From Nitrosopumilus sp. (GTDB taxonomy: Archaea; Thermoproteota; Nitrososphaeria; Nitrososphaerales; Nitrosopumilaceae): a stretch of DNA of 64,000 nucleotides. Shown here piece by piece: positions 2,241-19,203 of the stretch. Every line of letters starts with the position of its first letter. Within the stretch, counting starts at the first letter, position 1. The position numbers and the translations under genes are program-made. The stretch covers positions 1,088,001 through 1,152,000 of the forward strand of contig OZ245040.1 of assembly GCA_965224195.1 (NCBI GenBank), in the 5' to 3' direction. Below the pieces are notes generated by a model. The model saw only the letters and a program-made list of their open reading frames with translations. It did not search any database and had not been told where the DNA came from.

Positions 2241-3319
2241 TTATTCTTTCACATAACTCTCTGTTTTTAGCTCTTTTCCTGATTCTAACCTAATCGTATA
2301 TGCACTTAGTTTACTTTCAAAAATTGCCAGTACTGGCTCTTTAGTCTGCTTGATAGTTATCACTATGCATTCTTTTTGATCCTTTTTCTCATTCTCTAAG
2401 GAAATTTGTTGAAGAATAACATAACTGGGATCATATTCTGTAAATTTGTTAATCATAGTTCTTAACGATTGCATTCTATCCTCTAAATCTTCAACACCTA
2501 CAATTTCTCTAGTTCTATCGGTAATGCCTATGATGATAATACCATCATTTGAATTGGCATAACTGACAATATGCTGTGCAAATTCAAATTGTTTGATGTT
2601 TTTTGCCCCTGCTCCTTTTATACTCCAAAAATCTAATGTTTTTTTAAAATCCCACAAATTGTTTTCTACTATGCTTTGTTTTCTAACATAATTGATCACT
2701 TTTTTAAAAATTATATGTCTAAAAATTTATTCTGCTCTTGAATTTTTTTAATATCCAAAATTATTAGATTTACCGAGTCTCTAATTTTATGACAATATTC
2801 TTCAAAATCATGCATGATTTCATTTTCAGCTCTTGTAAACAGATACTTTTTACCTATTACTGGATGGCCAAGAAACGTCTCAGTAATCGTGCAGCTGTTC
2901 CCAGCTGCATACAAAGCAGGTGTAGAAGAAGCAATCGCCAACAAGAAACGTCTCAGTAATCGTGCATCTGTTCCCAGCTTGTAAACAGATACTTTTTACT
3001 TATTACTGGATGGCTTTCAGGATCTAATGGATCAAAAGCATCTAAATGCAATTCATGATAAATTCTACCTACTTGGTAACCTCCATACATTACAAAACCT
3101 AATGCAATTTCAGCGTAATGCTTGATTGAAGATTCACTGTCCGCTATTATTCTGGCAGTGGTTGATGGAAATCTTTCAGAACGTCTACTTGTACCCCATC
3201 CTTTATATGAAAATAAAATTGTAGGCACATCTTCATCTTTTTGTTTTAACTATTCGGTATATTCTAATAATTCAGTAATTTCTTTGTCATTCTTATCTGC
3301 AAATTTTTTTATTTTTTGA
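2241..3319 (-). pseudogene. Fragmented gene with C-terminal AlbA_2/Schlafen-like domain
   Basis: 2241..2699 has WDFK...SYANSNDGIIIIGITD; fragments 2711..2944 and 2953..3228 overlap in HPVI(S/G)KKYLFT and fuse if the 146-bp insertion is removed; 5' end abuts an IS remnant. Confidence 0.6.
2832..3014. repeat. Nested direct repeats A-B-X-B'-A' with 73-bp period
   Basis: A 2832-2868 / A' 2978-3014 (37 bp, 1 mismatch); B 2869-2906 / B' 2942-2979 (38 bp, 1 mismatch); X 2907-2941 (35 bp, unique). Confidence 0.9.
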
Positions 3320-3551
3320 ATGATCTATCCATTGATCACAGCAAAATGTTTGGAAAAGGAGATGTGTACATTAATGGGATTGAAGGTTTTTAGAGTTTTG
3401 TCAAACAGAACATGGCAAAGCATCATGGGGTGAATCCGGGAAAGTTCTTGTTGTACATCAAGGAGATGGAATGCAGATACAACAGTAGAGATGTAGATAC
3501 TTTCTCATTATTGCTTGATTATTGCCTTGGTGATGAATAATTGAGTCACCC
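3320..3551 (+). mobile_element. IS1595-family transposase 3' remnant
   Basis: Translates to SIDHSKMFGKGDVYINGIEGF*...KHHG...YIKEMECRYN, homologous to the IS at 60296-61201. Confidence 0.8.
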
Positions 3552-3776
3552 ATTATTTTTTGTCGCATTGTTTGTAAATTGGCTCAAAGAATGGTAACGG
3601 CAAATGTATGACATTAAGATATTTAATTATTTGATCATGTCTCAAGATATTTTGTTTTTTGATTGTGACTTTATTCATTATAGAATGATCAAAATACAAA
3701 AAACCAGAAGATGTCGTTATAATTTGCACATATCCTAAAACTCTCAACACTCTGACAAAATGATGCCAGCCTATTT

Positions 3777-3980
3777 TCAGATAAACACCACCTTGTGCAT
3801 AATATCTTTTGTAAAAAATTCGGATTTGGATTCTGGAAAGGCCTCTACATATCCGGCAATAATTTTATCCAATTCTGATTTTATCTCCTGTTTGTTTTTT
3901 CCAACAACAATTATCTCTGGTTTGTCGTAGCATTGAGCTAGCAATCCCTGCTCACTTTTTACCAGTTTTACTTGCAAATT
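3777..3980 (-). CDS. HicB-like small protein (true start uncertain)
   Basis: VKLVKSEQGLLAQCYDKPEIIVVGKNKQEIKSEL resembles the HicB N-terminal fold pattern; C-terminal part of ORF 3777..4088. Confidence 0.4.
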   Translation of the reverse strand, partial: NLQVKLVKSEQGLLAQCYDKPEIIVVGKNKQEIKSELDKIIAGYVEAFPESKSEFFTKDIMHKVVFI

Positions 3981-4449
3981 ACCCAAGATATAGGTATAAT
4001 AAATATGATATATATAAAATGTTATTATCCGGATTGATGCTGTCCTGCATACCACACTCCTTGTATCTGAGGATTTTGGAATGTGCAAGCATTACTTTTA
4101 CTTCTTTTGTAGTATATGCTCGCAAGCTAGGTGTCTTTTGCCTCTGTGGTAACATCTTGTAGATTATTTCCCAATTAAGATGAACTCGATTCATCACAAA
4201 GAAGTGTTTTATTCCTCCAAGCTTTGACGGTATGGAGTTAGGGTTTGCAGTCTGCCTCAAATACAGAACATAGTTTTCAAGCATTATCTGTAGATCATTG
4301 ATGAAAATTTCCAATAACTTCTTTTCATTAAATAATCCTGTGAATTTTCTGAATTGAGTAAGGTTTGATGTATAATTCTTTTTGGTATGCTTTGACTTGA
4401 TTGATTCTTCAAACAAGATCATGCTTCTTTGTTTTGTAAGCAATGTCAA
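3979..4449 (-). pseudogene. Tyrosine recombinase, N-terminal fragment lacking the catalytic domain
   Basis: Paralog of 14288..15217 (LTKQRS..LFEESIKSK, ..NPNSIPSK..GIKHF, LRAYTTKEVK), then similarity is lost. Confidence 0.85.
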
Positions 4450-4677
4450 ACATTACATTCTTGTAATCCTTGGCAAAATTTTCTTTGCTTATGTTTGCAT
4501 ATAGCAATATAGAATATGGAGTTTTAATCCTCAATCTCTTGTTTTCTGCTGGTACCACCGTAACGATATTTTCATTTCTTAGTGTCAGATGATTCCTTTC
4601 TTTTAAGTCATGGTGAATCTTTGTTTTTGCAGGTATCTTATCATCTGGTTGCCTGATATTCTTGGAAACTTTGACAT
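4447..4677 (-). pseudogene. hicA: HicA toxin pseudogene
   Basis: MSKFPRISGNQMIRYLQKQRF, then stop/frameshift; paralog of 15310..15546. Confidence 0.75.
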
Positions 4678-4889
4678 TATTGTTTGATAATAAGCATGTT
4701 AAATTCAGTTAAATTTCCACTCTCTTCGGCTGCAAGCTCTACTGCTTCCTTTATATTTTCCATCATATCTCCGAATGTATCGCTTTCTGATACTGCATGT
4801 AGTTCGTCACATCTGCCAACAAATCCGCCATCTTCAAGATCCTTGGTTATTACTACTGTGTAGGTCTTTTTTTGTAGGGTTGTACTCGT
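4677..4889 (-). pseudogene. hicB: HicB antitoxin with start codon mutated to ACG
   Basis: Open frame STTLQKKTYTVVITKDLEDGGFVGRCDELHAVSESDTFGDMMENIKEAVEL; paralog of 15546..15752. Confidence 0.75.
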
Positions 4890-6175
4890 AACGTAGATAG
4901 TCTCAAAAGCGTTAAAAATATTGCTAGTCTTATGCGTATTTTTGTAAGTAAAAAGAGATTATTGATTGCATCAACTCCTGACAGGATTGACGCAATCTTT
5001 TGCTGTTCCTTAATGTTTTTTGTATATGGTAGTTTTGTATTGGCAATTTCATCTTGATTTATTGCATCATAAGTAGTTCCTTGTGAATAAACTAAAAATC
5101 TTTTTTTACTGTGATTGACAAGGTAGTAACAATATAATAGATCGCATTCTATTGGATTTAACGCTGCTACTCCTCTACCTAAGCAACATTTCTTTCTTGT
5201 TAAGTTAATTTCTCCAACAGGAGCCCTTACAGAAAATAGAATCGAATTATCATTTGTAGTTTTTTTAGGATCAGTACACCAAATCATTGGATTTGGATAT
5301 GTTGCTCCAAAATCTGTTACTCCTTGATAGAATGGCAATCCTTTTTCTTCTTTATTATAACTTTCAGATGGTGGAGATTGACCCATTGTAATTTGTAGTA
5401 TCTTTGCAGTAGGTTTGATCTCCCATTCTTCTGGAATCTCATCATATTTTCCAAATAATCCCCTTACCCTCTTGAATTTTTTATGCCCTATCCCCCTGGT
5501 CAGAAGCTCCTGCATTAGACCTTTCTTCAATAGCTCAGCTTTGTTTACAACTTCTTGTGTACATTCAATTAATGCGTCAACTCTAGAGAGGATTGACGCA
5601 ATCTTTTGCTGTTCATGAATTAGAGGCAAGAGAATCAAAATTTGTTTTAGGTTTTTTTTGGATAGTCCATAAACTGAAACTCCTGTAACTCTTGCAATAA
5701 TTTGTTTCGTGACAAAATTCATTGATGTCAGATATGCTCGAAAATCAACCGAAGTATTCCCTTTTACATCTCGGATTGCAATCGTATGTAACCCTGAGAC
5801 TAGTTTCTTTCCATCAACATTTTTCAACAATATGCTTGTGCCAGAACCTTCATGATCCTCTGATGCATCTGCTATGACAAGGTCTCCTTCTTTTAACAAC
5901 GAGATATTTTTTACTTTAATTTTATCAATGAAGGGAATTTCTTCATTTTTGCAATCAAGAAAAATTTTCCATTTTGTATGCATGTCTCCATAATGGATAT
6001 AGTTCACATCACCTTTGTCTTCAAGATCGTTACGTGAGTTTGTAGCTGTGGAAAGGAATTCAAACACTTCCTCAAATGTTTTGGTCTTCCAATCTTCAGG
6101 AATCTCTATCTCTTTTCCAAACAACCATTTAACAAGCTTGTATCCTTTTTGCGGTGGCGTGCAACCATCCTTCAA
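4853..6175 (-). CDS. hsdS: Type I R-M specificity subunit, allele 1 (TRD1a+TRD2a); conserved C-terminal helix replaced by a read-through tail
   Basis: Two IPE(D/E)W...EQQKIASILS units; after SGVDA the sequence departs from the canonical tail seen in 12766..14013. Confidence 0.9.
   Translation of the reverse strand: MKDGCTPPQKGYKLVKWLFGKEIEIPEDWKTKTFEEVFEFLSTATNSRNDLEDKGDVNYIHYGDMHTKWKIFLDCKNEEIPFIDKIKVKNISLLKEGDLVIADASEDHEGSGTSILLKNVDGKKLVSGLHTIAIRDVKGNTSVDFRAYLTSMNFVTKQIIARVTGVSVYGLSKKNLKQILILLPLIHEQQKIASILSRVDALIECTQEVVNKAELLKKGLMQELLTRGIGHKKFKRVRGLFGKYDEIPEEWEIKPTAKILQITMGQSPPSESYNKEEKGLPFYQGVTDFGATYPNPMIWCTDPKKTTNDNSILFSVRAPVGEINLTRKKCCLGRGVAALNPIECDLLYCYYLVNHSKKRFLVYSQGTTYDAINQDEIANTKLPYTKNIKEQQKIASILSGVDAINNLFLLTKIRIRLAIFLTLLRLSTLRVQPYKKRPTQ
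4965..5008 (-). repeat. Palindromic hsdS site S1 (38-bp inverted repeat of S4)
   Basis: 4971-5008 is the exact reverse complement of 13870-13907. Confidence 0.9.
5418..5614 (-). repeat. Long inverted repeat, left copy (contains site S2)
   Basis: 5448-5614 is the exact reverse complement of 13234-13400 (167 bp); 5418-5440 matches 13408-13430. Confidence 0.95.
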
Positions 6176-6278
6176 TGTCTGATTTCAAATGTTATTCCAT
6201 ATTAAGGCATAAACCATCATTTACAAACCCCGATAAATACAATACATTAAAAAACTCTGAAACACATATCAGTCTAAA

Positions 6279-9200
6279 ATGAATTTTGATGTAGGCAAAG
6301 GTCCTGAAGCAACAGAATCAGAACTTCCAGCACTAGAGCAGCTAGTTGCAATGGGATACCAATACATCACACAGTCAGAACTCAACAAAACACGTACAGA
6401 TTATCGTGATGTATTACTCTATGATAGACTTGAGCAAGCAATTAGACGCTTAAATCCTGATTTTGATGATGATGGGATTCATGATGCAGTAGCTCAAATC
6501 GGTGAGGATAGATTCCCTTACAATTTAGATCCTGTTGAAACAAATGAGAAAATCAGGGCAAAACTAATCGGACTATCAAAGTCTGGTGGATTAGAACCCG
6601 TTGTTGTAACTCAAAATTTTGGTGAAGGGCCAGTTCAAAAGGTGGCAAAAATATTTGATCTTGATAATCCACAAAACAATGACTTTGTAGTAACAAACCA
6701 ATTCCAACTAGAAGGATTAAAGAATCCAATCTTTCCCGATGTAACAATTTTTGTAAATGGCATCCCTCTAGTTCAAATTGAATGCAAATCCCCTGCAATA
6801 CCTGACCCAATTGGTGAGGCAGTGGATAGAAAAAATTTCTACAAGTATCAGCAAAGAGGTAACGGGTATGAAAAACTATTTTTCTACAATCACTGTCTAA
6901 TTGCAGCTTGTGGAACTTTGGCTAGAGTTGGAACACTAAATTCTAATTTAAACTATTATTCTAGATGGGCAAAGCCATATCCGTTATCTGTAGATGATGT
7001 AAAACAACTATGCAATGGCAAGGCAAGAGAGCAAGAAATTCTCATTGCAGGATTACTTGCAAAAGAAAATCTGCTAAACCACATGCAAAATTTTGTACTC
7101 TATGATACAATTAACCACAATCGTGTCAAAATGATTGCAAAACATCAGCAATACAAAGCAGTATCTGAATGTGTGAATCGTTTAAAATTAGGCGAGGACA
7201 TCAAAGACAAGGGCGGAATCATTTGGCACACACAAGGTTCAGGTAAATCATTTTCCATGTTATGGTTTGCATCGCAGCTAATGTACAAGTTTGGCAATCC
7301 TCCAATAATGATAGTTACAGACAGAAAACAACTAGACAAACAAATTCATGACACTTTTAAAAAATGTGGATTTCCCAGTCCAATTAGAGCAAAAAATGGG
7401 AAGCACTTGGCAGAACTATTGAAAAACCCTAAAGGCAAAACCATCATGGCAATTATTGACAAGTTTGCAACAGAGCATGGGGCACATACTGATGAGAAGG
7501 TAATATGCCTAGTTGATGAGGCACACAGAAGTCAGTACAAGATAAATGCCGAACAAATGCGAGTATCCATGCCTAATGCCGTGTTTTATGGCTTTACAGG
7601 CACGCCAATTGACAAAAATGACAAGAGTACACCTCGTGTCTTTGGACCAATCATTGACAAGTATGGATTCCGAGAATCCCAAGAAGATGGTGCAACATTG
7701 CCAATCAGGTATCATGGAAGACTATCTGAATTGTTTGTTGAAGGCGGAGAAACAATTGATGAACTCTTTGAGCGAATTATTGGCAGTGATCCTACAGTAA
7801 ATGAAGAACTCAAAGACAAACTCAAAAAACAATGTGCCACAAAGGGAAAGATTGCAGAAGCTCCATCAAGAATCAAACGAATATCCTTGGATTTAGTCAA
7901 ACATTACACTACTCACATTGAACCAAACGGATACAAGGCAATGCTTGTTGCACCATCAAGGGAAGCCGCTGTACTTTACAAAAAAAATTTAGATGAACTA
8001 AACGCGCCACCATCAAAAATTATCATGACTTCTGATTTGGGTGAGAAAGGAAAAGATGAGCAAAGTTGGGATGAATATCGCCTCTCCTCTGAACAAAGAG
8101 AACAAGAAGCAGAACTATTCAAGAGTGCAGATAATCCGACCAAGATCCTAATTGTAGTTGACATGTTGCTTGTAGGATATGATGCACCAATTTGTCAGGT
8201 ATTATATCTTGATAAGGGAATTAGAGAACACAGCTTACTTCAAGCAATTGCCAGAGTAAACAGACCGCATGATGAACCAAAGACACATGGATTAATTGTA
8301 GATTATTCAGGTGTCACCAAAGAATTACAAACAGCACTTGAAATGTTTGAGAAAGATGACATTGAAGGGGCATTGGATCCACTAAATGAATTTCTACAGT
8401 TACTAAAAGATAGACATGCTGATGCAATTGTCTTTTTCAAAGGTATTGACAGAGAAGACAATGATGCAATCATAGAATACTTTGAACCATTAGATCTACG
8501 TGATGAGTTTGAGCAAGCATTCAAGCTGTTTTCAAGGGCATTGGATTCTGTAATGCCTGATAAAGAAGCAGACCCATACATTGAGGATTTCAAGTTCCTA
8601 AGTAAGGCAAGGCAGATAATTCGCACCTATTATGAGGGTGTCAAGCCCAGTACACGCCCATATGCCAAAAAAATCCAGAAATTAATCGATGATCATATTC
8701 GTTCACTATGTATTTCTGAATTAATTAATCCAATGGAGATTACATATGAGAATTTCTTGGCCTTTGTCAAAAAGAAGGTAAAAAGTGAGAAAGCACAAGC
8801 TGCCTTGATCAAAAACAAGGCAATCCAGGTAATTGAAGAACTAAGGGGGAACAATCCTGCATATTATGAGAAACTCTGGGAGAGACTACAAAAAATTATT
8901 GAAGAGGAAGAAAAAAGACGCAGAGAAAATGCACAATACTTTATACATCAAGAAGTATATGCAGAAGTCTATGACAAAGCACTAGCAGAAGAAAAAGAAA
9001 GGCAAAAAGTATTCGGTGATTATGAAGCAACCCAATTTGAATTTGCATTGTATGGAGAATTTAATGAAATAAAAGGCAGTCGTGAGGAATCAATTGAATT
9101 AACAAAAAAGATTCACTCTCAATTGGTTAAAGAAACTGAAATTGTCGGATGGAGAACAAAAAACAGTGTTGAGAAAAACATGAAGACTATACTATATGAT

Positions 9201-9284
9201 ACACTTAGTGTTGCAGGATTTGAAGATGAAAAACTCTCCAAACTTTCAGAGAAGATACTAACATTGGCAAAGAACAGATTATGA
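6279..9284 (+). CDS. hsdR: Type I restriction endonuclease subunit R
   Basis: PD..FVNGIPLVQIECK nuclease motif, HTQGSGKS, DEAH, QAIARVNR. Confidence 0.97.
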   Translation: MNFDVGKGPEATESELPALEQLVAMGYQYITQSELNKTRTDYRDVLLYDRLEQAIRRLNPDFDDDGIHDAVAQIGEDRFPYNLDPVETNEKIRAKLIGLSKSGGLEPVVVTQNFGEGPVQKVAKIFDLDNPQNNDFVVTNQFQLEGLKNPIFPDVTIFVNGIPLVQIECKSPAIPDPIGEAVDRKNFYKYQQRGNGYEKLFFYNHCLIAACGTLARVGTLNSNLNYYSRWAKPYPLSVDDVKQLCNGKAREQEILIAGLLAKENLLNHMQNFVLYDTINHNRVKMIAKHQQYKAVSECVNRLKLGEDIKDKGGIIWHTQGSGKSFSMLWFASQLMYKFGNPPIMIVTDRKQLDKQIHDTFKKCGFPSPIRAKNGKHLAELLKNPKGKTIMAIIDKFATEHGAHTDEKVICLVDEAHRSQYKINAEQMRVSMPNAVFYGFTGTPIDKNDKSTPRVFGPIIDKYGFRESQEDGATLPIRYHGRLSELFVEGGETIDELFERIIGSDPTVNEELKDKLKKQCATKGKIAEAPSRIKRISLDLVKHYTTHIEPNGYKAMLVAPSREAAVLYKKNLDELNAPPSKIIMTSDLGEKGKDEQSWDEYRLSSEQREQEAELFKSADNPTKILIVVDMLLVGYDAPICQVLYLDKGIREHSLLQAIARVNRPHDEPKTHGLIVDYSGVTKELQTALEMFEKDDIEGALDPLNEFLQLLKDRHADAIVFFKGIDREDNDAIIEYFEPLDLRDEFEQAFKLFSRALDSVMPDKEADPYIEDFKFLSKARQIIRTYYEGVKPSTRPYAKKIQKLIDDHIRSLCISELINPMEITYENFLAFVKKKVKSEKAQAALIKNKAIQVIEELRGNNPAYYEKLWERLQKIIEEEEKRRRENAQYFIHQEVYAEVYDKALAEEKERQKVFGDYEATQFEFALYGEFNEIKGSREESIELTKKIHSQLVKETEIVGWRTKNSVEKNMKTILYDTLSVAGFEDEKLSKLSEKILTLAKNRL

Positions 9285-9823
9285 TCAGTAAACTTCGCTA
9301 TGGCAATAGTGTCATAGAATACCAAATTATTAAAAGTAAGAGAAGAAAGACTTCGGAAATTAGAGTGGATGAAAACGGAGTAGAGATTCATACTCCAATT
9401 ACAAAAAAAGATTCAGAGATTCAAGAGATTGTTAACACCAAAAAACAATGGATATTCAAAAAACAATTAGAGTTTACAGACAGAAATAAAAGACAATTCA
9501 AAACTACAACAAAAACTCTTGAATATCTTGAGAAAAGATCTTGGAAGCTGGCAGAGAAGATTGGTGTTAAACCAAAGAAGATAGTAGTAAAAAATCTCAA
9601 ATCAAGATGGGGAAGTGCTGGAAAAACAGGAACAATTACGCTTAATCAGGCGTTAACCAGAATGCCTCCGAGAATAATCGACTATGTGATAATTCATGAA
9701 TTATGTCATTTGAAAATTAAAGGACATTCAAGTAGATTTTGGAGTATTCTTTACTCATACAACAAAGACTATCAAAAAAACATTCTCTGGTTAGAAAATA
9801 ATTTCAAGGATTTGTTGGGATGA
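9281..9823 (+). CDS. M48/YgjP (DUF45) zinc metallopeptidase commonly linked to hsdR
   Basis: KSRWGS, DYVIIHELCHL..GHS. Confidence 0.9.
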   Translation: MISKLRYGNSVIEYQIIKSKRRKTSEIRVDENGVEIHTPITKKDSEIQEIVNTKKQWIFKKQLEFTDRNKRQFKTTTKTLEYLEKRSWKLAEKIGVKPKKIVVKNLKSRWGSAGKTGTITLNQALTRMPPRIIDYVIIHELCHLKIKGHSSRFWSILYSYNKDYQKNILWLENNFKDLLG

Positions 9824-9929
9824 CAAATGACTTGCAATTACTCAAAATAGGAATAAAAATGGGAGCCCACATTTGACATAACCAAAAATAAAAACAGAAT
9901 ATTTTATAAATTAATTATGGTGTTATAGA

Positions 9930-10695
9930 AGTATGTTGGAATTAAAACGTGTTCAGCATATCTTTATTGAATGCTATTCTGAACCTATTGATACCATTGA
10001 AACATGGAACAGAGCTTGTCATACAATTGCAATTAAGAATGATTCCGCATTTTACAACACTACAAAAGGTAGTAGCTCGAATCAGTCAAGAAATATTACA
10101 CACTGCAATTGGCAGATTCATTGGAATGGTATCACCTGGAAAAATATTTGCAGGAATCGATGGTACATGATTTGAGAGAAGACACGCCATACTGCAGATG
10201 TAATCTCAGGCATGCATTTACAAAATGCTCAACAGGATCTGGTATGAAATTGCAGTTGATTTGTGCAGTTGTAATCCAACATAATCCCATATCTCATGAC
10301 ACAAAGCATTTCCCAAAACTGTTTTCTAAAATGCTTGATGTTGTTGCAATGTGGATTATAGTGCTGGACAAGTAATACGATGCAGAACCAATACGCAAGA
10401 TGATCAAAGATGAGAATGGCTTATCTTTGATTCCTGTAAGAAACAAAGATTGTCTGATTAGCAGAACAAAAGGAAGATTACAGAAAACAGATGAGAAGAG
10501 AATTTGATTATTCATATACCATGAGAGAAATAAAACTGGAACGATATTTTCTGTAATTAAGAGAAGGTTTGATTCTGAAATCAAATCGTACAATGATGCC
10601 ATGAAAACAAAAGAGCTGTTGTATCGTGTCTTGGCTTGCAATTGTCATAGGATGCGTTTGATTTCTCTAGTTTGTATGATGATTTCTAGGAAGTC
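9930..10695 (+). mobile_element. Decayed IS5-like DDE element
   Basis: IPHFTTLQK and AGIDGT fragments; 3' part homologous to 18598..19116; right end TGATTTCTAGGAAGTC at 10680-10695. Confidence 0.75.
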
Positions 10696-10772
10696 TTTTA
10701 TCTTAAATACAACTGACTCATCTAGCATCATCAGAATCCATATAACCCTGAATAATAGGTATCATTACAGAT

Positions 10773-12257
10773 TTGTCTGAAAAAGTTACACTTGAGATGC
10801 TAAAATCACACCTGTGGAAGGCATCAGACATTCTCAGAGGCAGTCTTGATGCATCAGAGTATCGAGAACCAGTAATGACCATTCTATTCCTAAAGCGACT
10901 AAATGATAGATTCGAGGAAAATGTTGAGAAACTGATTGCAGATGGAAAATCCGAAAAGGAAGCAAATCAAGACTTTAGACATGACTTTTTTGTTCCAAAA
11001 GAAGCAAGATGGGATAAACTATCTGCAGTAAGAAGCAGAGTTGGAGAAAAAATTGACAAGATTTGCAAACTAATTGAAAAATCAAATGAGAAGCTAGAAG
11101 GTGTTCTGACTAATACAAAGTATTCTGATCCTAGAAAGTATCCTGATGACAATTTAGCAAACTTGATTTCCCACTTTAATTCCCCACGATTAAGAAATTC
11201 CGATTTGGAGAAAGAAGATATTTTCGGGGATGCATATGAGTATCTCTTAGAGCAGTTTGCAGACGCAACAAAGAAGAAAGGTGGAGAGTTTTTTACACCA
11301 CGTGAAGTTGTAAATTTGCTTGTCAATTTGGTAGACCCCAAAGAAGGAATGAGAGTTTCAGACCCCACATGTGGCTCTGGTGGTATGTTGATTGTATCAC
11401 GTCATTACGTGGAGCAAAACAAGGGAAATCCACGTGACTTGGTACTAGATGGTCAGGAATCAAACTATGGAAACTTGGCAATGTGCAAAATGAACATGGT
11501 ATTGCATGGAATTTCAGACTTTACAATAGAGTATGGCGATACACTATCCAATCCTAGACAAGTAGATGGTGGAAAACTCAAAACATATGACAAGGTACTT
11601 GCAAATTTCCCATTCTCAATGGATTGGGATAACAACGGTGCAGAAAAAGATCCTTACAATCGATTCAGATTTGGCATTCCTCCTGCAAAAGGCAAGGCAG
11701 ATTTTGCATTTATTCAGCACATGTATTCGCAATTAAATGAAAAAGGTCAAGCTGCAATCGTCTGTTCTCAAGGCGTTTTGTTTAGGAGTTCAGTTGAGAG
11801 TAAAATTCGTGAAGGACTAATTGCAGAGGATGTAATTGAGGCAATAATTGCGATTCCTTCAAATTTATTCTTTGGAACAGGTATTCCTGCATGTGTTTTG
11901 ATATTAAACAAAAACAAACCAGCAAAAAGAAAGGAAAAAATAATTTTCATTTATGGTGCTAAAGATTACTTGGATGGTAAAAATAGAAACAAGCTTCGTG
12001 ATGAAGACATTACAAAAATAGTCAAGGCATTTTCTAATTTCAAAGATGTTGATAGATATTGCCATGTTGCAGATATTGATGAACTAAAAGAAAATGAGTT
12101 TAACCTTAATGTTCCAAGATATGTAGACATATCAGAACCTGAGGAAGAGATTGATATTCAGAATGCTTGGGATGAACTCAAAGAGACCAATACAGAACAA
12201 GAAAAACTAGAAAAGCAAGTAAAATCAGATTTGATGGAATTGGGAATAAATCTCTGA
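10773..12257 (+). CDS. hsdM: Type I R-M methyltransferase subunit M
   Basis: GEFFTP, DPTCGSGG, motif IV ANFPF, NLFFGTGIP. Confidence 0.97.
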   Translation: MSEKVTLEMLKSHLWKASDILRGSLDASEYREPVMTILFLKRLNDRFEENVEKLIADGKSEKEANQDFRHDFFVPKEARWDKLSAVRSRVGEKIDKICKLIEKSNEKLEGVLTNTKYSDPRKYPDDNLANLISHFNSPRLRNSDLEKEDIFGDAYEYLLEQFADATKKKGGEFFTPREVVNLLVNLVDPKEGMRVSDPTCGSGGMLIVSRHYVEQNKGNPRDLVLDGQESNYGNLAMCKMNMVLHGISDFTIEYGDTLSNPRQVDGGKLKTYDKVLANFPFSMDWDNNGAEKDPYNRFRFGIPPAKGKADFAFIQHMYSQLNEKGQAAIVCSQGVLFRSSVESKIREGLIAEDVIEAIIAIPSNLFFGTGIPACVLILNKNKPAKRKEKIIFIYGAKDYLDGKNRNKLRDEDITKIVKAFSNFKDVDRYCHVADIDELKENEFNLNVPRYVDISEPEEEIDIQNAWDELKETNTEQEKLEKQVKSDLMELGINL

Positions 12258-12317
12258 TTTGTAATATTTGTTCTACAAATTAGAAAATGTTTTGTGCAGT
12301 TATGTGTATACTATCAC

Positions 12318-12704
12318 ATGGAGATGATTATTCTAGTAGGCATTGCAGGAAGTGGAAAAACTACATGGTGTACAAAGTATTTGCCACACCATACAAGAAT
12401 ATCACTGGATGACATAAAAAATCATAACAGAAAACTGGAAGATAAGATGATAATATCTGAACTGGAAAAAGAAAATAATATTGTTATAGATGACACAAAT
12501 CTTACACGAGACATACGTGAAAGACACATTACAATTGCTAGAGAGTATTGTACTTTAGTAAATGCAATTTATTTTTGCATTGACATACAAAAAACATATG
12601 TGCAAAATTTCAAGCGTGAAAAAAAGATACCATGCTATGTTTTAGATCGCCAGAAAAAACAGCTTGAGATACCTCGTGAAGAAGAAGGTTTTGGGTTTGT
12701 CTAG
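12318..12704 (+). CDS. AAA_33 / polynucleotide-kinase-like P-loop protein, possibly 3'-truncated
   Basis: LVGIAGSGKTT, VIDDTNL, EEGF. Confidence 0.75.
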   Translation: MEMIILVGIAGSGKTTWCTKYLPHHTRISLDDIKNHNRKLEDKMIISELEKENNIVIDDTNLTRDIRERHITIAREYCTLVNAIYFCIDIQKTYVQNFKREKKIPCYVLDRQKKQLEIPREEEGFGFV

Positions 12705-12783
12705 TTTTTAAATACATGAAAACTTGTAATCAGAATAGCCCGTTTGACCAGTCTTAAAATATGATGTGAGATGTCGCTTGATA

Positions 12784-14013
12784 ATGAAAAAACCAAAAAA
12801 AGGTTGCAAACTAGTCAAGGGATTATTTGGAAAGGAGATCGAGATTCCAGAAGAATGGAAAGTTGAAAAATTCAATGATAGAATTAAACTAGAATATGGC
12901 TCAAGTTTAACAGCAGAACAACGAGATAATGCAGGTAATCCAGTATATGATTCAGGTGGAATTATTGGATTTCATTCTAAACCTATTGTGAATAATATAG
13001 GAATTGTTGTAGCAAGAAAAGGTTCTATTGGAAATATTTTCTATGAAAAACAAGATTTCTTTCCAATAGATACTGTATATTATATTACAAAAAATGAAAC
13101 GACATTCAATTTACTTTTTCTTTTTTATTACCTAACAAATATGAAATTAGAAAATCTTGCAATAGTTACCTCTAAACCTGGAATTAGCAGAAATGAAATT
13201 TACTCACTTAAAATAATATTTCCTCTACTTCCCGAACAGCAAAAGATTGCGTCAATCCTCTCTAGAGTTGACGCATTAATTGAATGTACACAAGAAGTTG
13301 TAAACAAAGCTGAGCTATTGAAGAAAGGTCTAATGCAGGAGCTTCTGACCAGGGGGATAGGGCATAAAAAATTCAAGAGGGTAAGGGGATTATTTGGAAA
13401 GGAGATCGAGATTCCAGAAGAATGGGAGATTAGAAAGTTAGATGGAATAGGAGAGTTAATTGGTGGTGGCACACCTGATTCTACAAATCTAGAGTATTGG
13501 AATGGAGAAATATTATGGGCAGTTCCCACAGATATTACAAAATTACAAACTAATCTGATTGAAAATACTGAAAGAAAGATTACAAAAAAAGGATTGGATA
13601 ACAGTTCTGCTAAATTATTACCTATCGGTACAGTTTTGATTACTTCTAGAGCTACCATTGGTAAATGTGCAATAACTACAAAATCCATTACAACCAATCA
13701 GGGATTTCAGAATATTATCTGTAATAAAGATCAGAGTAATTTATTCATATTTTATGTAATGAAACATAATCAAAATGTATTAGTGAGATTATCTTATGGA
13801 ACAACATTTTTAGAAATCAGCAAAAAAGATATGCGGAAAATGCTAGTATGTTTGCCGTATTCTAGTTACGAACAGCAAAAGATTGCGTCAATCCTGTCAG
13901 GAGTTGACGCATACATACAGAAGAACCAAGAATACAAGGAAAAGTTGGAGAGGCTTAAAAAAGGCCTTATGCAAAAACTGCTTACAGGTCAGATCCGTGT
14001 AAAAATCAAATAA
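12784..14013 (+). CDS. hsdS: Type I R-M specificity subunit, allele 2 (TRD1b+TRD2b), complete
   Basis: Two TRDs and a canonical LKKGLMQKLLTGQIRV C-terminus; follows hsdM. Confidence 0.95.
   Translation: MKKPKKGCKLVKGLFGKEIEIPEEWKVEKFNDRIKLEYGSSLTAEQRDNAGNPVYDSGGIIGFHSKPIVNNIGIVVARKGSIGNIFYEKQDFFPIDTVYYITKNETTFNLLFLFYYLTNMKLENLAIVTSKPGISRNEIYSLKIIFPLLPEQQKIASILSRVDALIECTQEVVNKAELLKKGLMQELLTRGIGHKKFKRVRGLFGKEIEIPEEWEIRKLDGIGELIGGGTPDSTNLEYWNGEILWAVPTDITKLQTNLIENTERKITKKGLDNSSAKLLPIGTVLITSRATIGKCAITTKSITTNQGFQNIICNKDQSNLFIFYVMKHNQNVLVRLSYGTTFLEISKKDMRKMLVCLPYSSYEQQKIASILSGVDAYIQKNQEYKEKLERLKKGLMQKLLTGQIRVKIK
12819..13425 (+). repeat. 40-bp perfect direct repeats bracketing TRD1b (12819-12858 and 13386-13425)
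   Basis: GGGATTATTTGGAAAGGAGATCGAGATTCCAGAAGAATGG occurs twice. Confidence 0.9.
13234..13430 (+). repeat. Long inverted repeat, right copy (contains site S3)
   Basis: Reverse complement of 5418-5614 except for a 7-nt block. Confidence 0.95.
13870..13911 (+). repeat. Palindromic hsdS site S4
   Basis: TGCGTCAA-TCCTGTCAGGAG-TTGACGCA. Confidence 0.9.
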
Positions 14014-14041
14014 TTTCTGAGTTATAACATATTAAAAATTA

Positions 14042-14248
14042 TTATTGTCTATCTTTATTATCGGATTTTTTCCAGATTTGTATTTGTCCACCATATACAT
14101 CATTGTCATATGCCATTGAAGGAATTTGAGCATAAAATCCTGTACGGCCAGTGCTAAAAGTTTTAGCTGGCAATAATACCTCATGTTCTTTGCCATCAGG
14201 CATTGTTAGTTTGGCTGAGACAAAATTTGGTTTCTCATTAGACATCAT
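14042..14248 (-). CDS. Small hypothetical protein downstream of the recombinase
   Basis: 68 aa with KTFSTGRTGFY motif, predicted beta-rich; co-oriented with the recombinase. Confidence 0.65.
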   Translation of the reverse strand: MMSNEKPNFVSAKLTMPDGKEHEVLLPAKTFSTGRTGFYAQIPSMAYDNDVYGGQIQIWKKSDNKDRQ

Positions 14249-14287
14249 TTGTTTTTGTTGTCTGTGGCTTGTTAATTAATTGAAAGT

Positions 14288-15217
14288 TTATCTGATCTCT
14301 ATTTTATACATTATTTTCTTAAATTCGGTAAATAACTCCTTCAATGTTGGTGTAAAGTAAATTCCATCAAGGCCATTTTTGTGACCCATTAGTTTCTCTG
14401 CAATGTTATAGTTTATGCTATTGTCCAGTTTTAGTATGGTATTATATCGCTTTCTAAATCCATGATCCGCTTGTACATCAAAACGATTGTCATACTTTAG
14501 TCTTGTAATGTTGCTTTTTTGTATTGTTCTGTATATTACAGAGCGAACTCCACTCCATCCTATCTGCTTAGGGCGAAATTTGCATGTAGCAAATATGGGT
14601 GTGTCTTTGTAAAATATCTCACCCTTACTTTTTCGATAGTCATGATATGCATTTACTGCTTTTGTTGCTTGTGGTGTGAGAAATGCCCAATATTCTTCTA
14701 TATCTCCAGCATAGAGCAGTACTGCTGTACAGCCATAAGGCATTTTCATCATATGTCTTATTGACAAATCATGATCAAAGATGCCTATCCTGGCACCAGT
14801 AACTGCAAAGAAATGAATTAACGCCTTGTTTCTAGGATTTGTTGCGCTATGTATTAGTTCTTTTACTTCTTTTGTCGTATATGCTCGCAAGCTTTGTGTC
14901 TTTTGTTTTTGTGGGAACATCTTTGTGATTATATTCCAATTGAGGCTGATCTCATTCATAACGCAAAAATGCTTTATGCCATGAAATTTTGACGGTATTG
15001 AGTTAGGATTTGTGGCGCGTTTTAGTTCAATCAAGTAATTTTCTAGCTTGTATTGTAATTCCAAATTAGGCATAGTAACTAATTGATTTTGATGTGAAAG
15101 ATCTGCAAATTTTAGAAATGAATCAAGATGTGCGGTATAATTCTTTTTTGTATATTTTGATTTGATTGATTCTTCAAATAATAGAGAACTACGTTGTTTA
15201 GTTAGTAAAATACTCAT
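14288..15217 (-). CDS. Tyrosine recombinase/integrase, intact
   Basis: Catalytic residues TGAR, HGFRK, LMGH and GIYF. Confidence 0.93.
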   Translation of the reverse strand: MSILLTKQRSSLLFEESIKSKYTKKNYTAHLDSFLKFADLSHQNQLVTMPNLELQYKLENYLIELKRATNPNSIPSKFHGIKHFCVMNEISLNWNIITKMFPQKQKTQSLRAYTTKEVKELIHSATNPRNKALIHFFAVTGARIGIFDHDLSIRHMMKMPYGCTAVLLYAGDIEEYWAFLTPQATKAVNAYHDYRKSKGEIFYKDTPIFATCKFRPKQIGWSGVRSVIYRTIQKSNITRLKYDNRFDVQADHGFRKRYNTILKLDNSINYNIAEKLMGHKNGLDGIYFTPTLKELFTEFKKIMYKIEIR

Positions 15218-15309
15218 GTATTACTTTATGGCAAAATGTTTATTTCTGCACGTATGTTTATGAAACTAGATTGTTTTGATTTTTATAATCATATTATTTT
15301 TACAGCATA

Positions 15310-15546
15310 TTATTTTACATTTCCTTTGTTGTGATCACCTACAAATTCATCCCTGGTTATTTCTACAGCTTTTAATATTTGTAAAAACAAACCTGGTTTT
15401 ATCATATTTTGGCCTGCAGGAATAGTTACACGTATACTGATATTTGCTAATGTAACATGACTGCCTTTTCTATTTTTTACAAAGAATCCCTTTTTAATTA
15501 AATATTTTATCATCTGGTTGCCTGATACTTTTGGAAGTTTTGTCAT
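15310..15546 (-). CDS. hicA: HicA-family mRNA interferase toxin
   Basis: KLPKVSG..MIKYL.KKGF...RKGSHV. Confidence 0.9.
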   Translation of the reverse strand: MTKLPKVSGNQMIKYLIKKGFFVKNRKGSHVTLANISIRVTIPAGQNMIKPGLFLQILKAVEITRDEFVGDHNKGNVK

Positions 15547-15752
15547 TACTTTAGTACAATAAGCATATTAAATTCATCTTGGCTGCTTTCAGATGCAAGC
15601 TCTACAGCTTCTTTGATATTTTCCATTATCTCGCCATACGTTTCGCCTTGAGAATAGGCATGTAATTCCTCACATGTGCCAACAAACCCGCCATCTTCTA
15701 CGTCTGCTGTAACTATAATGGTGTAAGTTTTTTTTTCCAGTGTAGTACTCAT
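15546..15752 (-). CDS. hicB: HicB-family antitoxin
   Basis: EDGGFVGTCEELHAYSQGETYGEIMENIKEAVEL; likely start MSTT at 15752; TAATG coupling to hicA. Confidence 0.9.
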   Translation of the reverse strand: MSTTLEKKTYTIIVTADVEDGGFVGTCEELHAYSQGETYGEIMENIKEAVELASESSQDEFNMLIVLK

Positions 15753-15824
15753 TGTATACACATTGTGCACATATGCAAATATATTAAATATACTGTTGAT
15801 TTTATGCATAATTTCAAATATGTT

Positions 15825-15977
15825 ATTGCATCAACTCCTGTCAAGGATTGACGCAATCTTTTGCTGTTCATAGATTAGAGGCAAGAGAATCAAAATTTGT
15901 TTTAGGTTTTTTTTGGATAGTCCATAAACTGAAACTCCTGTAACTCTTGCAACAATTTGTTTCGTGACAAAATTCAT
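15825..15977 (-). pseudogene. hsdS: Third hsdS fragment: 3' end of TRD1a plus site S5
   Basis: 15844-15977 matches 5589-5722 with 3 mismatches in 134 bp; the outer arm ATTGCATCAACTCCTG matches S1. Confidence 0.9.
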
Positions 15978-16190
15978 AGACGTGATGGAAAACATTTCAG
16001 ATTCTCTTGATGATAGTATGATGGAGGAAACTACATCAGTTTATACAGACAAGGGATTGACAGTGTAGCCATCAGAGATCATCTGAAAAACAAAAGCATT
16101 GTTCCATGCATTCCAAAAAGAGCTTTCAAGAAAAACAACAGTAAAAAATACAGTCACAAAAACTACAACAGGGCGAGATTTGTAGCGGAG
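15978..16190 (+). mobile_element. IS5-family transposase orfB fragment
   Basis: FIDVMENISDSLDD...VYTDKG, homologous to 17920..18316. Confidence 0.8.
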
Positions 16191-16990
16191 CGGATGATGT
16201 TGAATGCGTCTTTGAATGTCTCAGAGAGAGGCTCAGCTGAAATCTTTCTGTCCCTGTATGATTTTTGGCCTTCTTTAGAACCATAAAACTCTGCAAGTTT
16301 GATGCTTTCTGGCAGCGTATGTGGATACTGTTTGGCTGGAATGATCAATCGGGAATGTTTCTTGTTGGCTGAATCATACAGTGAATCATCATCATATGTA
16401 GGATCTGCCAGAATGTTTTGGAATAATCCTGCAAGCGGTTCTGTTATTGCATTGAATTTTTGAGAATCATGAATATTTGCAGTGCTAACATCAGAGAACA
16501 GCGGAACTACCAGTTTTCCAGTAGAGCCATCAGTATCAGTTCCTGCAACTGGAAGACGGTTGCTTCTGATGCCTGGTTTGTGCCAGGCAGGGCCTGCAGT
16601 TTTCAGCACGGAGATGTCAACTGGTGCAGATGTGTAATCGGCTAGTCTCTCTGAGACAGACAGACTGCCCATGGTGCTGATAATTTCAGATGTTGGAAGA
16701 TTCTGAAGTCTTCTGCCGACTGTTCTTCTGTTTGGGATCTGTTGCACCCTGCAAGCCTTGAGCAGTATGTAATCATTGCACTTGATTGAAAAAAATAACG
16801 AGACGTGTCGTTACTTGGAACTCTCATCCTAGACCTTGTGATGAACAATTGTATCACAAGAACAGTTGAACAGGCATACGGCCTGCCAGGCCTAACCATA
16901 TCCCCAACAAATACAATACTCCAGCCGGTTCTTTTGCGTCTTCGATAAAATAGATGAGTAGGCATGATTTTGATGGTGTTGCGTGGCGGT
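16190..16990 (-). mobile_element. Decayed DDE transposase, frameshifted
   Basis: GRPYACST, IPNRRTVGRRL, STANIHDS, ILADPTYD, YRDRKISAEP. Confidence 0.75.
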
Positions 16991-16994
16991 GAAT

Positions 16995-17351
16995 TTAGAA
17001 CATCTTGTGTTTTTTGGCTAGTTTGACTAATTTCTCAAAATCTTTTGGAGGAATAAAAGTAGCAAACTGAGCAAAAGTCCATTTACCTCTCATTCTTGGT
17101 TTGTCACCAATGATATTGTATCTTAATCTAAGCTCCTTTTTTCTATTAATTTGAATCTCATCTAGAATTATTATTTTTCCTTGTTCTGCTGAATCTTGTT
17201 GAATCCATACACATCTTAGGATTTGACAATTCTTGAGTGTCTTTTTGTTGTAATGTGTATGAAAGATAAACGGTGGTAGTTTTGGTAATTGTATTGTTCT
17301 ATCTTCTTCGGATAAACTGTAAACGTTTTCCAAGTATCCTGACTTTGTCAT
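16995..17351 (-). CDS. Hypothetical protein
   Basis: 118-aa ORF with ordinary composition. Confidence 0.55.
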   Translation of the reverse strand: MTKSGYLENVYSLSEEDRTIQLPKLPPFIFHTHYNKKTLKNCQILRCVWIQQDSAEQGKIIILDEIQINRKKELRLRYNIIGDKPRMRGKWTFAQFATFIPPKDFEKLVKLAKKHKMF

Positions 17352-17357
17352 TTTGAT

Positions 17358-18611: not shown

Positions 18612-18615
18612 ATCG

Positions 18616-19203
18616 GGGCTTCCTAGAAATCATAATCCAAACCAAAGAAATGATACACATCCTGTGACAACAAGCCAACACACGGTACAGCAGCTCTTTT
18701 GTCTTCATGGTATTATCATACGATTTTATTTCAGAATCAAACCTTCTTTTTACTACAGAAAACATCGTCTCAGTCTTGTTTCGCTCATGGTACAATGAAT
18801 AATCAACTCTTCTCATCAATTTTCTGTATCCTCCTTTTGTTCTGTTAATCAGACAGTCTTTGTTTCTTGTAGGAATCATGGAAATAGTATTTTTACCTCG
18901 AATTCTCTTGTGAACTGGTTCTGCATCACGCCCATCCAGCCATTCAACAAATGACTCGTAGCTTTCTGACTCGTACTGTCCAAGGACTGGTAAAATGATG
19001 TGCTGGTGTATTGAAAATGTATGCTTTGATTTTGGATATACAAACAACGGAGCATTCATTTTCTTTAGAATCTGGCGCATGAGGGAGATCATCATGCGTT
19101 GGTGTTTGTTTTTCATGAAATGAGAAATGTGTAATTATTGATGGATCTTGATAATTAGTTTGATCTACAATTAGGTAAAATCTTGGTGATTTCCAGGAAG
19201 CCC
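18616..19203 (-). mobile_element. Internally deleted IS5-like element (non-autonomous, 588 bp)
   Basis: 17-bp TIRs GGGCTTCCTAGAAATCA / TGATTTCCAGGAAGCCC; transposase N- and C-termini joined (YHERNKTETMFSVVKRRF). Confidence 0.85.

Follow-up and report, generated by a model that had tools for sequence, protein, structure and literature searches.

The present analysis concerns a Type I restriction-modification (R-M) locus of Nitrosopumilus sp. that lies in a window of 64,000 nucleotides (G000:C1:1088001-1152000; positions given without a prefix are those of the window), taken from a genome of 2.07 Mb with a completeness of 99.85% (G000). The locus holds two inverted hsdS genes around hsdR and hsdM, perfect inverted repeats inside these genes and a gene for a tyrosine recombinase beside them. 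The hsdS reading frames stay open in all simulated recombinants, a near-palindrome within the repeats is conserved, and so is the linkage of the recombinase to hsdS among relatives. These features suggest that active, recombinase-driven switching of hsdS probably takes place at this locus. Judging by its sequence, the locus belongs functionally with the inverting Type I loci, as a conserved archaeal variant that has a recombinase subfamily of its own, carries a toxin-antitoxin pair as passenger and is built around a shared helix.

As an earlier note on this DNA had described, hsdS1 (minus strand) and hsdS2 (plus strand) face outward around hsdR and hsdM (Table 1). Both genes are intact. The four target recognition domains (TRDs) that they carry differ from one another, the best BLASTP pair reaching 40% identity over 48 residues. 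Two perfect inverted repeats, one of 167 bp (5448-5614 / 13234-13400) and one of 38 bp (4971-5008 / 13870-13907), were reproduced by a script check, neither being extendable by one base; with mismatches tolerated, a repeat finder lengthens the first to 212 nt (95-96%) and the second to 42 nt (98%). A fifth copy of the repeat, which the earlier note had overlooked, was found by self-comparison in a 134-nt hsdS remnant (15844-15977) directly upstream of a small open reading frame (ORF) and hicA. An inverting locus is expected to hold at least two hsdS genes together with a complete hsdM and hsdR, and its inverted hsdS copies are expected to share intragenic repeats that flank the TRDs. In the window, hsdS1, hsdS2 and the remnant accompany a complete hsdM and hsdR, and the shared repeats lie after TRD1 and after TRD2. 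A chance origin of the repeats can be taken as excluded, because the flanking cassette copies described below are just 78-81% alike while the 167 bp within the genes are identical.

The two genes differ at their ends. The conserved C-terminal helix, which mirrors the central conserved region, is present in hsdS2 only (alignment A2). In hsdS1, a non-helix tail of 36 residues follows the residues SGVDA (A2), as the earlier note had seen; the sequence there, which it called unrelated, is in fact a decayed recombinase-HicAB cassette. After inversion in silico of 5615-13233, of 5009-13869 or of both, each slot still has an open frame, 411-453 codons long, and any of the four TRD1 x TRD2 combinations can thereby be reached in the helix-bearing slot, in agreement with the earlier prediction. 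The helix-bearing gene combines TRD1 of hsdS1 with TRD2 of hsdS2 (S1T1, S2T2) after the first inversion, and becomes (S1T1, S1T2) after the second and (S2T1, S1T2) after both.

All five repeat copies of the window open, in sense orientation, with the same 26 nt and hold a near-palindrome of 28 bp. At 13884-13911 it reads TGCGTCAATCCTGTCAGGAGTTGACGCA and can be divided as 11-6-11, the layout of the 28-bp dif sites; it is encoded by the residues IASILSGVDA that follow every TRD. The central hexamer separates two classes of site, one found after TRD1 (the central or c-type site, in the 167-bp repeat) and the other after TRD2 (the C-terminal or e-type site, in the 38-bp repeat), while the spacer of the remnant's site is interrupted by a 1-nt insertion. 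Inverted partners have matching spacers in the window and in two further loci (L040, L043), the C-terminal spacer being near-universal and the central one varying by locus. A codon-blind scan for the protein motif yielded 30 sites, 26 of them in 14 loci of other genomes and four in G000. Serine was encoded by TCA at 30 of 30 sites, valine by GTT at 29 of 29 (one site has isoleucine), and leucine by CTN and alanine by GCG or GCA at all 30, counts that are not independent since the compared sites are related by descent. The genomes with these sites have a G+C content of about 33%. A constraint at the nucleotide level is suggested because the codons are fixed while the surrounding proteins are just 25-60% identical; the fixed synonymous positions thus argue for a constraint on the DNA itself.

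The perfect match of 38 bp stops within the palindrome's right arm. From there onward the tail-side and helix-side versions differ, consistently across loci, and this point of divergence is consistent with what an exchange within the core would leave. An 8-6-8 palindrome is found at the equivalent codons of both central sites in an unrelated hsdS family of the same genome (locus L068, see below). It is from these features that we infer binding and cutting by the recombinase at the 28-bp candidate core. Covariation between the palindrome arms (GCG/GAC versus GCA/GAT) was also considered; with 18 of the 30 sites symmetric, it was unconvincing and was not used.

The recombinase gene lies 275 bp past the stop codon of hsdS2, as previously noted, and its ORF of 309 aa (14288-15217) is intact, including its catalytic set. 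An inverting locus is expected to encode its recombinase within or beside it, which is the case here. R143, H252, R255, H279 and Y287 are invariant among 18 family members (alignment A1), which gives the tyrosine recombinase signature R...HxxR...H/W...Y, the catalytic lysine not being placed. A family profile searched against the PDB found the XerA structures 5hxy (1.9e-6) and 4a8e (6.3e-5), and in the alignment to 4a8e H252 and R255 fall on HxxR, H279 on the conserved histidine and Y287 on the region of the catalytic tyrosine; phmmer with the single recombinase sequence found no matches in the PDB. Only XerA_Arch and XerC were matched in a scan of NCBIfam, both under cut-off, the match to XerA_Arch (NF040815; 4.7e-13) scoring 49.3 bits against an equivalog cut-off of 220. 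Similarly, the single sequence scored 19.6 bits against PF00589, whose gathering threshold is 27.1, and PF00589 is precomputed for many close homologues. A collection of 5.8 billion proteins contained 747 proteins at E <= 1e-5, with none named among the 120 clusters listed. By these profile matches the enzyme is classed as a XerA-related tyrosine recombinase, not as XerA. The closest named records that encode it are all from Nitrosopumilus or from Nitrososphaerota metagenome-assembled genomes, and the locus is therefore archaeal.

The recombinase is accompanied by a HicA/HicB-like pair that had escaped the earlier note. The hicA product carries a HicA toxin domain (38.6 bits against a cut-off of 27). 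The neighboring small ORF (15546-15809) has no Pfam match, and a profile of eight homologues found TTHA1756 (1.3e-6) and the HicB structures 6u0i (0.0092) and 6hpb (0.12), with no DNA-binding C-terminal domain; it is presumed, with reservation, to be HicB-like. Self-comparison matched 4634-4835 with 15503-15698 (78% identity) and 4095-4247 with 14860-15012 (81%). Consequently, a minus-strand module of hsdS end, small ORF, hicA and recombinase occurs twice: in the right copy the cassette is intact and hsdS is broken, and in the left copy the cassette is decayed and hsdS (hsdS1) is intact. Further copies of the cassette are present elsewhere in the genome, at 1.945 Mb beside a half-hsdS and with a stop in the recombinase, at 1.972 Mb in decayed form, and at 0.514 Mb intact. 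In the usual layout of the family, hsdM and a complete hsdS are followed by recombinase, hicA and hicB on the other strand and then by a tail-less hsdS'. The original partner of hsdS2 would be the remnant past the recombinase, destroyed by an insertion sequence (IS) element, and hsdS1 would be the tail-less gene of an older, decayed cassette copy that now serves as partner.

The search for recombinase homologues covered 401 genomes of the class and found them in 193, a tally that includes five unpublished genomes, which contributed to no other result. Among the 21 loci whose recombinase is at least 53% identical (L027-L047), hsdS lies within 1.5 kb in 14 (12 clear and two weak cases) and hicA and/or a hicB-like gene is present in ten. 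None of the eight loci at 38-49% identity (L048-L055) has hsdS. Metagenome loci of at least 4 kb (36 of 80, mostly 39-52% identical) showed hsdS in two of 36 and hicA/hicB in none. Almost all of the 80 loci are distant homologues (39-52% identical) lacking hsdS. The link between recombinase and hsdS is thus strongly supported by conserved synteny. Many distant homologues in the metagenome loci (L076-L155; 39-52% identical), often 350-450 aa long and extended at the C-terminus, start about 200 bp or less from the end of a contig; they lack hsdS and hicAB neighbors and fit mobile-element integrases, unlike the hsdS-linked subfamily.

Inverted hsdS pairs with inverted repeats were found in seven of eight loci that were extended to up to 20 kb. 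The repeats measure 193 nt at 94% identity in L066, and 204 nt at 97.5% and 62 nt at 96.8% in L067. Outside this set, L056, whose recombinase is 78% identical, and L058 have inverted repeats as well, of 54-74 nt at 98%. L065 and L070 share the layout of L066 and L067 (complete hsdS, cassette, tail-less hsdS'), and L069 resembles the window in having two inverted hsdS genes around hsdM-hsdR-ygjP. One of the seven (L068; G000:C1:505000-523000), a second Type I system of the same genome, has an EcoEI-type hsdR and an hsdM of only 25% identity, and comprises hsdR, hsdS, a NucS-like gene, a recombinase (67% identical), hicA, a hicB-like ORF, a tail-less hsdS' and hsdM. Its complete and tail-less hsdS genes converge on the recombinase-hicA-hicB cassette and share an inverted repeat of 623 nt at 92%. 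Since the cassette here accompanies an unrelated Type I family, it is tied to hsdS pairs and not to one R-M family. One TRD is common to both hsdS genes of this second system, at different positions.

The copies of the cassette might be read in another way, with the recombinase as the integrase of a mobile R-M island, or of a small recombinase-HicAB element targeting hsdS, and the repeats as attachment-site scars. The cassette (hsdS end, hicB, hicA, recombinase) is directly repeated at both ends of the locus, 10.3-10.9 kb apart, several copies exist in the genome (1945 kb, 1972 kb and 514 kb), IS elements adjoin, and the more distant homologues are often located at the extreme ends of contigs from metagenomes. 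However, no tRNA gene is present in window positions 1-24000, and the direct-repeat att sites beside a tRNA gene or conserved gene end that would mark an integrative element were not found. The hsdS copies around the cassette are inverted in seven of the eight extended loci, not direct like attL/attR, and in both of the unrelated Type I families that it accompanies, the cassette lies between one complete and one tail-less hsdS; the integrase-like homologues, by contrast, have hsdS neighbors in none of eight and two of 36 loci. The duplication of the cassette is taken as an old one and not as att scars because the copies are 78-81% identical. Overall, an integrase origin of the repeats appears quite improbable, and inversion between hsdS genes is the reading retained below.

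Traces of past exchange are preserved at the repeats. In the hsdS remnant, an end of the hsdS1-TRD1 type is joined, at 97.8% identity, to an e-type site and hicB. This TRD is joined to the other site class and has therefore moved between slots at exactly these repeats. The segments of 167 bp and 38 bp are identical while the cassettes are 78-81% alike, and the hsdS segments were therefore exchanged or homogenised long after the cassettes had separated. In a related species (G009), a unit of hsdM, kinase gene and hsdS is tied to a tail-less end and a hicB remnant, and a half-hsdS with the helix lies before hsdR; this linkage is opposite to that of the window, as expected from an inversion inside hsdS. 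No recombinase is found within 18 kb in G009, and the inverted repeats there have decayed to 83-89%. Read from these traces, recombination at the repeats has occurred during evolution; that switching also takes place within a population is what we infer.

Sequencing reads were drawn from four runs aligned to 3500-16500, three as Logan contigs (k = 31; X1-X3) and one as raw Hi-C reads of 151 nt (X4), of which about 2% of the library was read, corresponding to ~5x. Each unique segment is covered by independent contigs of three runs (two studies) at 100% identity and at even depth, which makes an assembly collapse of the repeats, a refuting condition of the earlier note, unlikely. The assembly is of metagenome type, and X1 and X2 contain a second strain at roughly one quarter of the depth, yet the same architecture recurs in many independently assembled genomes. 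An origin of the repeats or of the inverted gene copy by collapse or mis-join is accordingly extremely improbable. The contigs are undecisive on inversion, because perfect repeats longer than 31 bp yield no recombinant-specific word, and the read data say nothing about inversion either way.

Minor contigs of X1 and X2 leave the reference after 12861 or 13284, directly past conserved segments of hsdS, and rejoin it at 13870, where the C-terminal repeat starts (mirror positions 5008/5564), with depths of 31-39 in X1 and 39-105 in X2, about a quarter of the locus depth. The contigs of the hsdS1 TRDs reach ~70-85% of locus depth, and the depths of the hsdS1 TRD1 contig and the 12861->13870 variant add up to that of hsdR (X1, 78.5 + 31.5 versus 109.6; X2, 273.8 + 104.8 versus 372-388). 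This hints at a heterogeneity of TRD cassettes bounded by the conserved repeats, possibly reflecting a second strain or cassette replacement. A metagenome scan for other arrangements, made with a 30-mer of hsdS2 TRD2, gave 0 matches. Contig C2 (7.4 kb) was considered as an alternative haplotype of the invertible segment and was rejected, as it has no similarity to C1 or to any protein of the locus.

Several observations weigh against ongoing, enzyme-driven inversion. The canonical partner gene is destroyed, its site mutated and the left cassette decayed, so that the locus may be a relic that became frozen not long ago. At 7.6-8.9 kb, the inversions proposed are large, and hsdR and hsdM would be reversed with them. 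The recombinase falls under the Pfam and NCBIfam family cut-offs and its catalytic lysine is without assignment, and in two relatives with an intact recombinase (L065, L069) the central repeats are just 80-86% identical. No strand-changing joint reached the reporting threshold among the reads, where the k = 31 contigs break at both repeats and the Hi-C data reach just ~5x. The shared descent of the compared sites counts here as well, and homologous recombination or gene conversion could also keep the 167-bp repeat identical.

The last of these points is part of the principal rival explanation, in which a past rearrangement was frozen or exchange is purely homologous, the repeats staying identical through occasional gene conversion or RadA-type recombination and no programmed, recombinase-driven switching taking place at a useful rate. 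Such an origin would account for the IS-destroyed canonical partner with its 1-nt insertion, for the decay of the left cassette, for the alternative orientation not having been seen (k = 31 contigs, ~5x Hi-C reads) and for G009, which retains the inverted pair with no recombinase nearby. There is also a precedent, as recombination at pneumococcal spnIII was reported, in the accessible part of the article, to be independent of known site-specific recombinases (PMC6620402). On the other hand, the C-terminal block of homology measures just 38-42 bp, which is short for homologous recombination, and its limit coincides exactly with the palindrome's edge. The recombinase has an intact ORF with invariant catalytic residues, its subfamily lies near hsdS in 14 of the 21 loci, and the palindrome is fixed at synonymous sites. 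A relic maintained by homologous exchange is therefore considered unlikely, though it is the strongest of the competitors, and programmed inversion by the dedicated recombinase is the preferred interpretation.

In the proposed mechanism, a dedicated XerA-like recombinase, carried with the HicA/HicB-like pair in a small cassette, would drive hsdS inversion by acting at the 28-bp dif-like palindrome. Each spacer class would pair only with its own kind, which would keep the genes in register. Inversion at the central pair (7.6 kb) would swap the TRD1s, and inversion at the C-terminal pair (8.9 kb) would move the sole helix-coding end between the genes. With both inversions available, the complete gene could receive any of the four TRD1 x TRD2 combinations, and hsdR and hsdM would flip too. 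Inversion at these cores and by this enzyme would be occurring at present.

Among known systems, the hsd loci of Mycoplasma pulmonis also have an inverted hsdS pair flanking hsdR and hsdM, with two kinds of intragenic site giving chimeric genes. The M. pulmonis recombinase HvsR is encoded elsewhere in its genome, whereas the Nitrosopumilus recombinase gene adjoins the locus; the two systems also differ in domain of life, in recombinase lineage and in the design with a tail-less slot. Similarities to archaeal XerA/dif include the XerA structures as nearest solved relatives, XerA_Arch as nearest NCBIfam model and the 28-bp 11-6-11 core. Unlike XerA/dif, however, several recombinase copies exist per genome, each beside hsdS, and the site pairs are intragenic and inverted, which would lead to inversion and not to dimer resolution. 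The pneumococcal SpnD39III/cod (ivr) locus with PsrA/CreX, as far as it is treated in the available portion of the source (PMC7672463), is alike in being an inverted multi-hsdS Type I locus with intragenic repeats at two positions, a locus-encoded recombinase and TRD shuffling. In pneumococcus, the 5' end and promoter of the expressed gene are fixed and silent copies supply TRDs. In the Nitrosopumilus locus, by contrast, both hsdS genes keep their own 5' ends and share one helix-coding C-terminal end, hsdR and hsdM lie within the invertible segment, and a HicA/HicB-like pair is part of the cassette. A toxin-antitoxin system that regulates pneumococcal hsdS inversion is encoded outside the locus, according to the available text (PMC11709252), and is a loose parallel to the HicAB-like pair. 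By its matches to XerA profiles, the recombinase is placed in a putatively separate, XerA-like archaeal subfamily.

Inversion of hsdS is well studied in bacterial pathogens and commensals and has scarcely been examined in archaea. The accessible text of one survey describes epigenetic invertons at 827 + 1140 loci, with 92% of the species host-associated (Huang et al., 2020; PMC7672463, NAR 48:11468). The Nitrosopumilus locus fits the definition of an inverton given there, namely hsdS of a Type I system flanked by inverted repeats, with multiple hsdS genes and an invertase homologue. Tables 1 and 2 of that paper list 4 and 11 euryarchaeal loci, all of them predictions, and none from Nitrososphaerota/Thaumarchaeota. 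The statement of the earlier note that no archaeal example has been characterised thus holds in so far as the accessible text of Huang et al. (2020) contains no experimental characterisation, and needs amending in that these 4 + 11 predicted euryarchaeal invertons have been tabulated. In the parts available of other studies, only bacteria were scanned and archaea were proposed as the next step (Milman et al., 2023; PMC9881135), or 42 archaeal long-read sets, none of them thaumarchaeotal, yielded 12 putative invertons in a field called "minimally investigated" (Chanin et al., 2023; PMC10028968). No archaeon is named in the accessible main text of Atack et al. (2020; PMC7394358), and the words inversion, inverted and recombinase are absent from the accessible text of a 2024 review of archaeal R-M systems (PMC11033074). 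Searches on Nitrosopumilus hsdS and on archaeal phase variation and invertons found no published description of such a locus, although supplementary tables, e.g., S4-S11 of Huang et al. and the data sets of Atack et al., may list more.

A more general proposal is put forward tentatively, as a possibility somewhat below even expectation. Nitrosopumilaceae may carry a portable hsdS-inverting cassette, composed of a XerA-derived invertase and a HicA/HicB-like pair, which was recruited by at least two unrelated Type I families. Its helix-swap logic, not described for bacterial systems, would have two hsdS genes, complete in other respects, share a single end that encodes the C-terminal coiled coil; this end would pass between them via inversion at a 28-bp dif-like core in conserved codons, and a second class of core, distinguished by its spacer, would shuffle TRDs in register.

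Table 1. Positions of the features of the Type I locus and its flanks, with the evidence for each.
Feature	Position	Strand	Evidence
Truncated second recombinase copy, N-terminal 156 aa only	3979-4449	minus	direct repeat of 14860-15178 at ~81%; tblastn and alignment to intact recombinase; weak SAM-like domain matches
Decayed hicA/hicB-like pair directly after hsdS1; hsdS1 tail reads into it	~4615-4887	minus	4634-4835 vs 15503-15698 = 78%; repeat families D1, D3
hsdS1, 440 aa: has two TRDs, the central conserved region and a C-terminal repeat but lacks the C-terminal helix (tail-less slot)	4853-6175	minus	Pfam Methylase_S 1.7e-33, two stretches
C-terminal (e-type) repeat of hsdS1, 28-bp palindromic core 4967-4994	4967-5008	minus	complementary to 13870-13911: 38 bp perfect, 42 bp at 98%
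Central (c-type) inverted-repeat arm, core 5573-5600	5448-5614	minus	167/167 complementary to 13234-13400
hsdR, 1001 aa, full domain set	6279-9284	plus	Pfam HSDR_N, SWI2_SNF2, T1R_D3-like
YgjP-like metallopeptidase gene	9281-9823	plus	Pfam YgjP-like 1.1e-36
Dispersed repeat of ~690 bp between ygjP-like gene and hsdM	10005-10696	none	partial copies elsewhere in genome and in several relatives
hsdM, 494 aa	10773-12257	plus	Pfam N6_Mtase 6.5e-106, HsdM_N
Gene between hsdM and hsdS2 for a small P-loop kinase-like protein (AAA_33 / polynucleotide-kinase-like)	12294-12704	plus	Pfam AAA_33 6.1e-14; kept in G009
hsdS2, 415 aa: two TRDs and conserved C-terminal helix (complete slot)	12766-14013	plus	Pfam Methylase_S 1.5e-48; second stretch = profile positions 1-168 of 168
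Central inverted-repeat arm, core 13248-13275	13234-13400	plus	perfect
C-terminal (e-type) repeat of hsdS2, core 13884-13911	13870-13911	plus	repeat comparison
Tyrosine recombinase, 309 aa, distantly XerA-like	14288-15217	minus	family alignment and profile matches
hicA toxin-domain gene	15310-15546	minus	Pfam HicA_toxin (PF07927) 1.2e-9, 38.6 bits vs cut-off 27
Small HicB-N-domain-like ORF (presumed antitoxin), likely start near 15752	15546-15809	minus	profile of 8 homologues
Third hsdS remnant: end of TRD of hsdS1-TRD1 type and mutated e-type repeat, cut by IS sequence	15819-15977	minus	15844-15977 vs 5589-5722 = 97.8%

Among the remaining features of the locus, the ygjP-like gene also follows hsdR in four relatives (L065, L069, L070, L071) and is a usual companion of Type I loci in this group. 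NCBIfam Pnkp-like matches of the kinase-like gene are far under cut-off. An IS-related repeat (15967-16002 / 17965-18000) and transposase fragments adjoin the hsdS remnant. The gap between hsdS2 and the recombinase is filled by an ORF of 68 aa (14042-14248, minus strand) with no Pfam match, and measures just 29-43 bp in relatives. The dispersed repeat is without a match in Pfam or Rfam and lacks clear terminal inverted repeats; its partial copies include 18619-18927 of the window, several copies occur per genome in some relatives, and it is missing from run X3 (zero depth at 9576-10443). A scan of window positions 3000-19000 against Rfam gave no matches. Further downstream, an ORF of 341 aa (21883-22908) consists almost entirely of TPEP repeats with a hydrophobic C-terminal segment, in a 2-kb bin with a G+C content of 44%. 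At the other end, a gene with a Schlafen/AlbA_2 domain (2241-2699) adjoins two short ORFs that resemble pieces of one broken gene (2241-3228).

A separate observation concerns CRISPR arrays in the same genome. Three CRISPR arrays lie beside three cas1 genes, with 90 repeats of 36 nt at a period of 72-75 nt in the first, 68 repeats of 30 nt at 66-67 nt in the second and 132 repeats of 37 nt at 72-74 nt in the third. Outside the arrays there are ~35 solo structures, in which 35-39 nt of ordinary, often coding, sequence are directly duplicated around an unrelated insert of 33-40 nt. Their start-to-start spacing is 70-76, except for one with a 32-nt duplication at a spacing of 66, and this geometry matches that of the arrays. 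When spacings of 40-160 were scanned, those that are not multiples of three gave counts of 0-1 everywhere except at 70-76, where the sum was 25. About seven of the solo inserts are identical to another place in the genome, as compared with none of 287 true array spacers. By their geometry, the solo structures look like products of off-target Cas1-Cas2 spacer integration on an unusual scale; off-target spacer integration was reportedly described in E. coli by Nivala and coworkers in 2018. One of them lies in the window (~2869-2979), within the broken-gene pieces beside the Schlafen/AlbA_2 gene, and a further one at G000:C1:1973078 in a paralogue of window 3904-3939. A stretch of 36 nt of the 167-bp hsdS repeat (13298-13333 / 5515-5550) is 100% identical to sequence at G000:C1:911483-911590 (L005 1465-1572), where the insert sits, in frame, in an MCM-like gene, with one copy of a 36-nt duplication of that gene on either side. 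This gene has two more such insertions and is broken. The occurrence of a piece of the hsdS repeat as a solo insert indicates that DNA of this repeat was once available as a prespacer.

The locus provides a concrete and testable archaeal system in Nitrosopumilus, a group of globally abundant nitrifiers with cultured members, with a defined enzyme family and a 28-bp candidate site. If it is active, the invertase and its site would constitute a compact archaeal pair and a possible genetic tool, and populations would spread their risk from viruses through changes of methylation specificity, which might also affect gene expression. If the general proposal of a portable cassette is true, the toxin-antitoxin pair would stabilise the cassette or gate its activity, and programmed inversion and switching of epigenetic specificity would be a regular feature of abundant marine ammonia-oxidising archaea.

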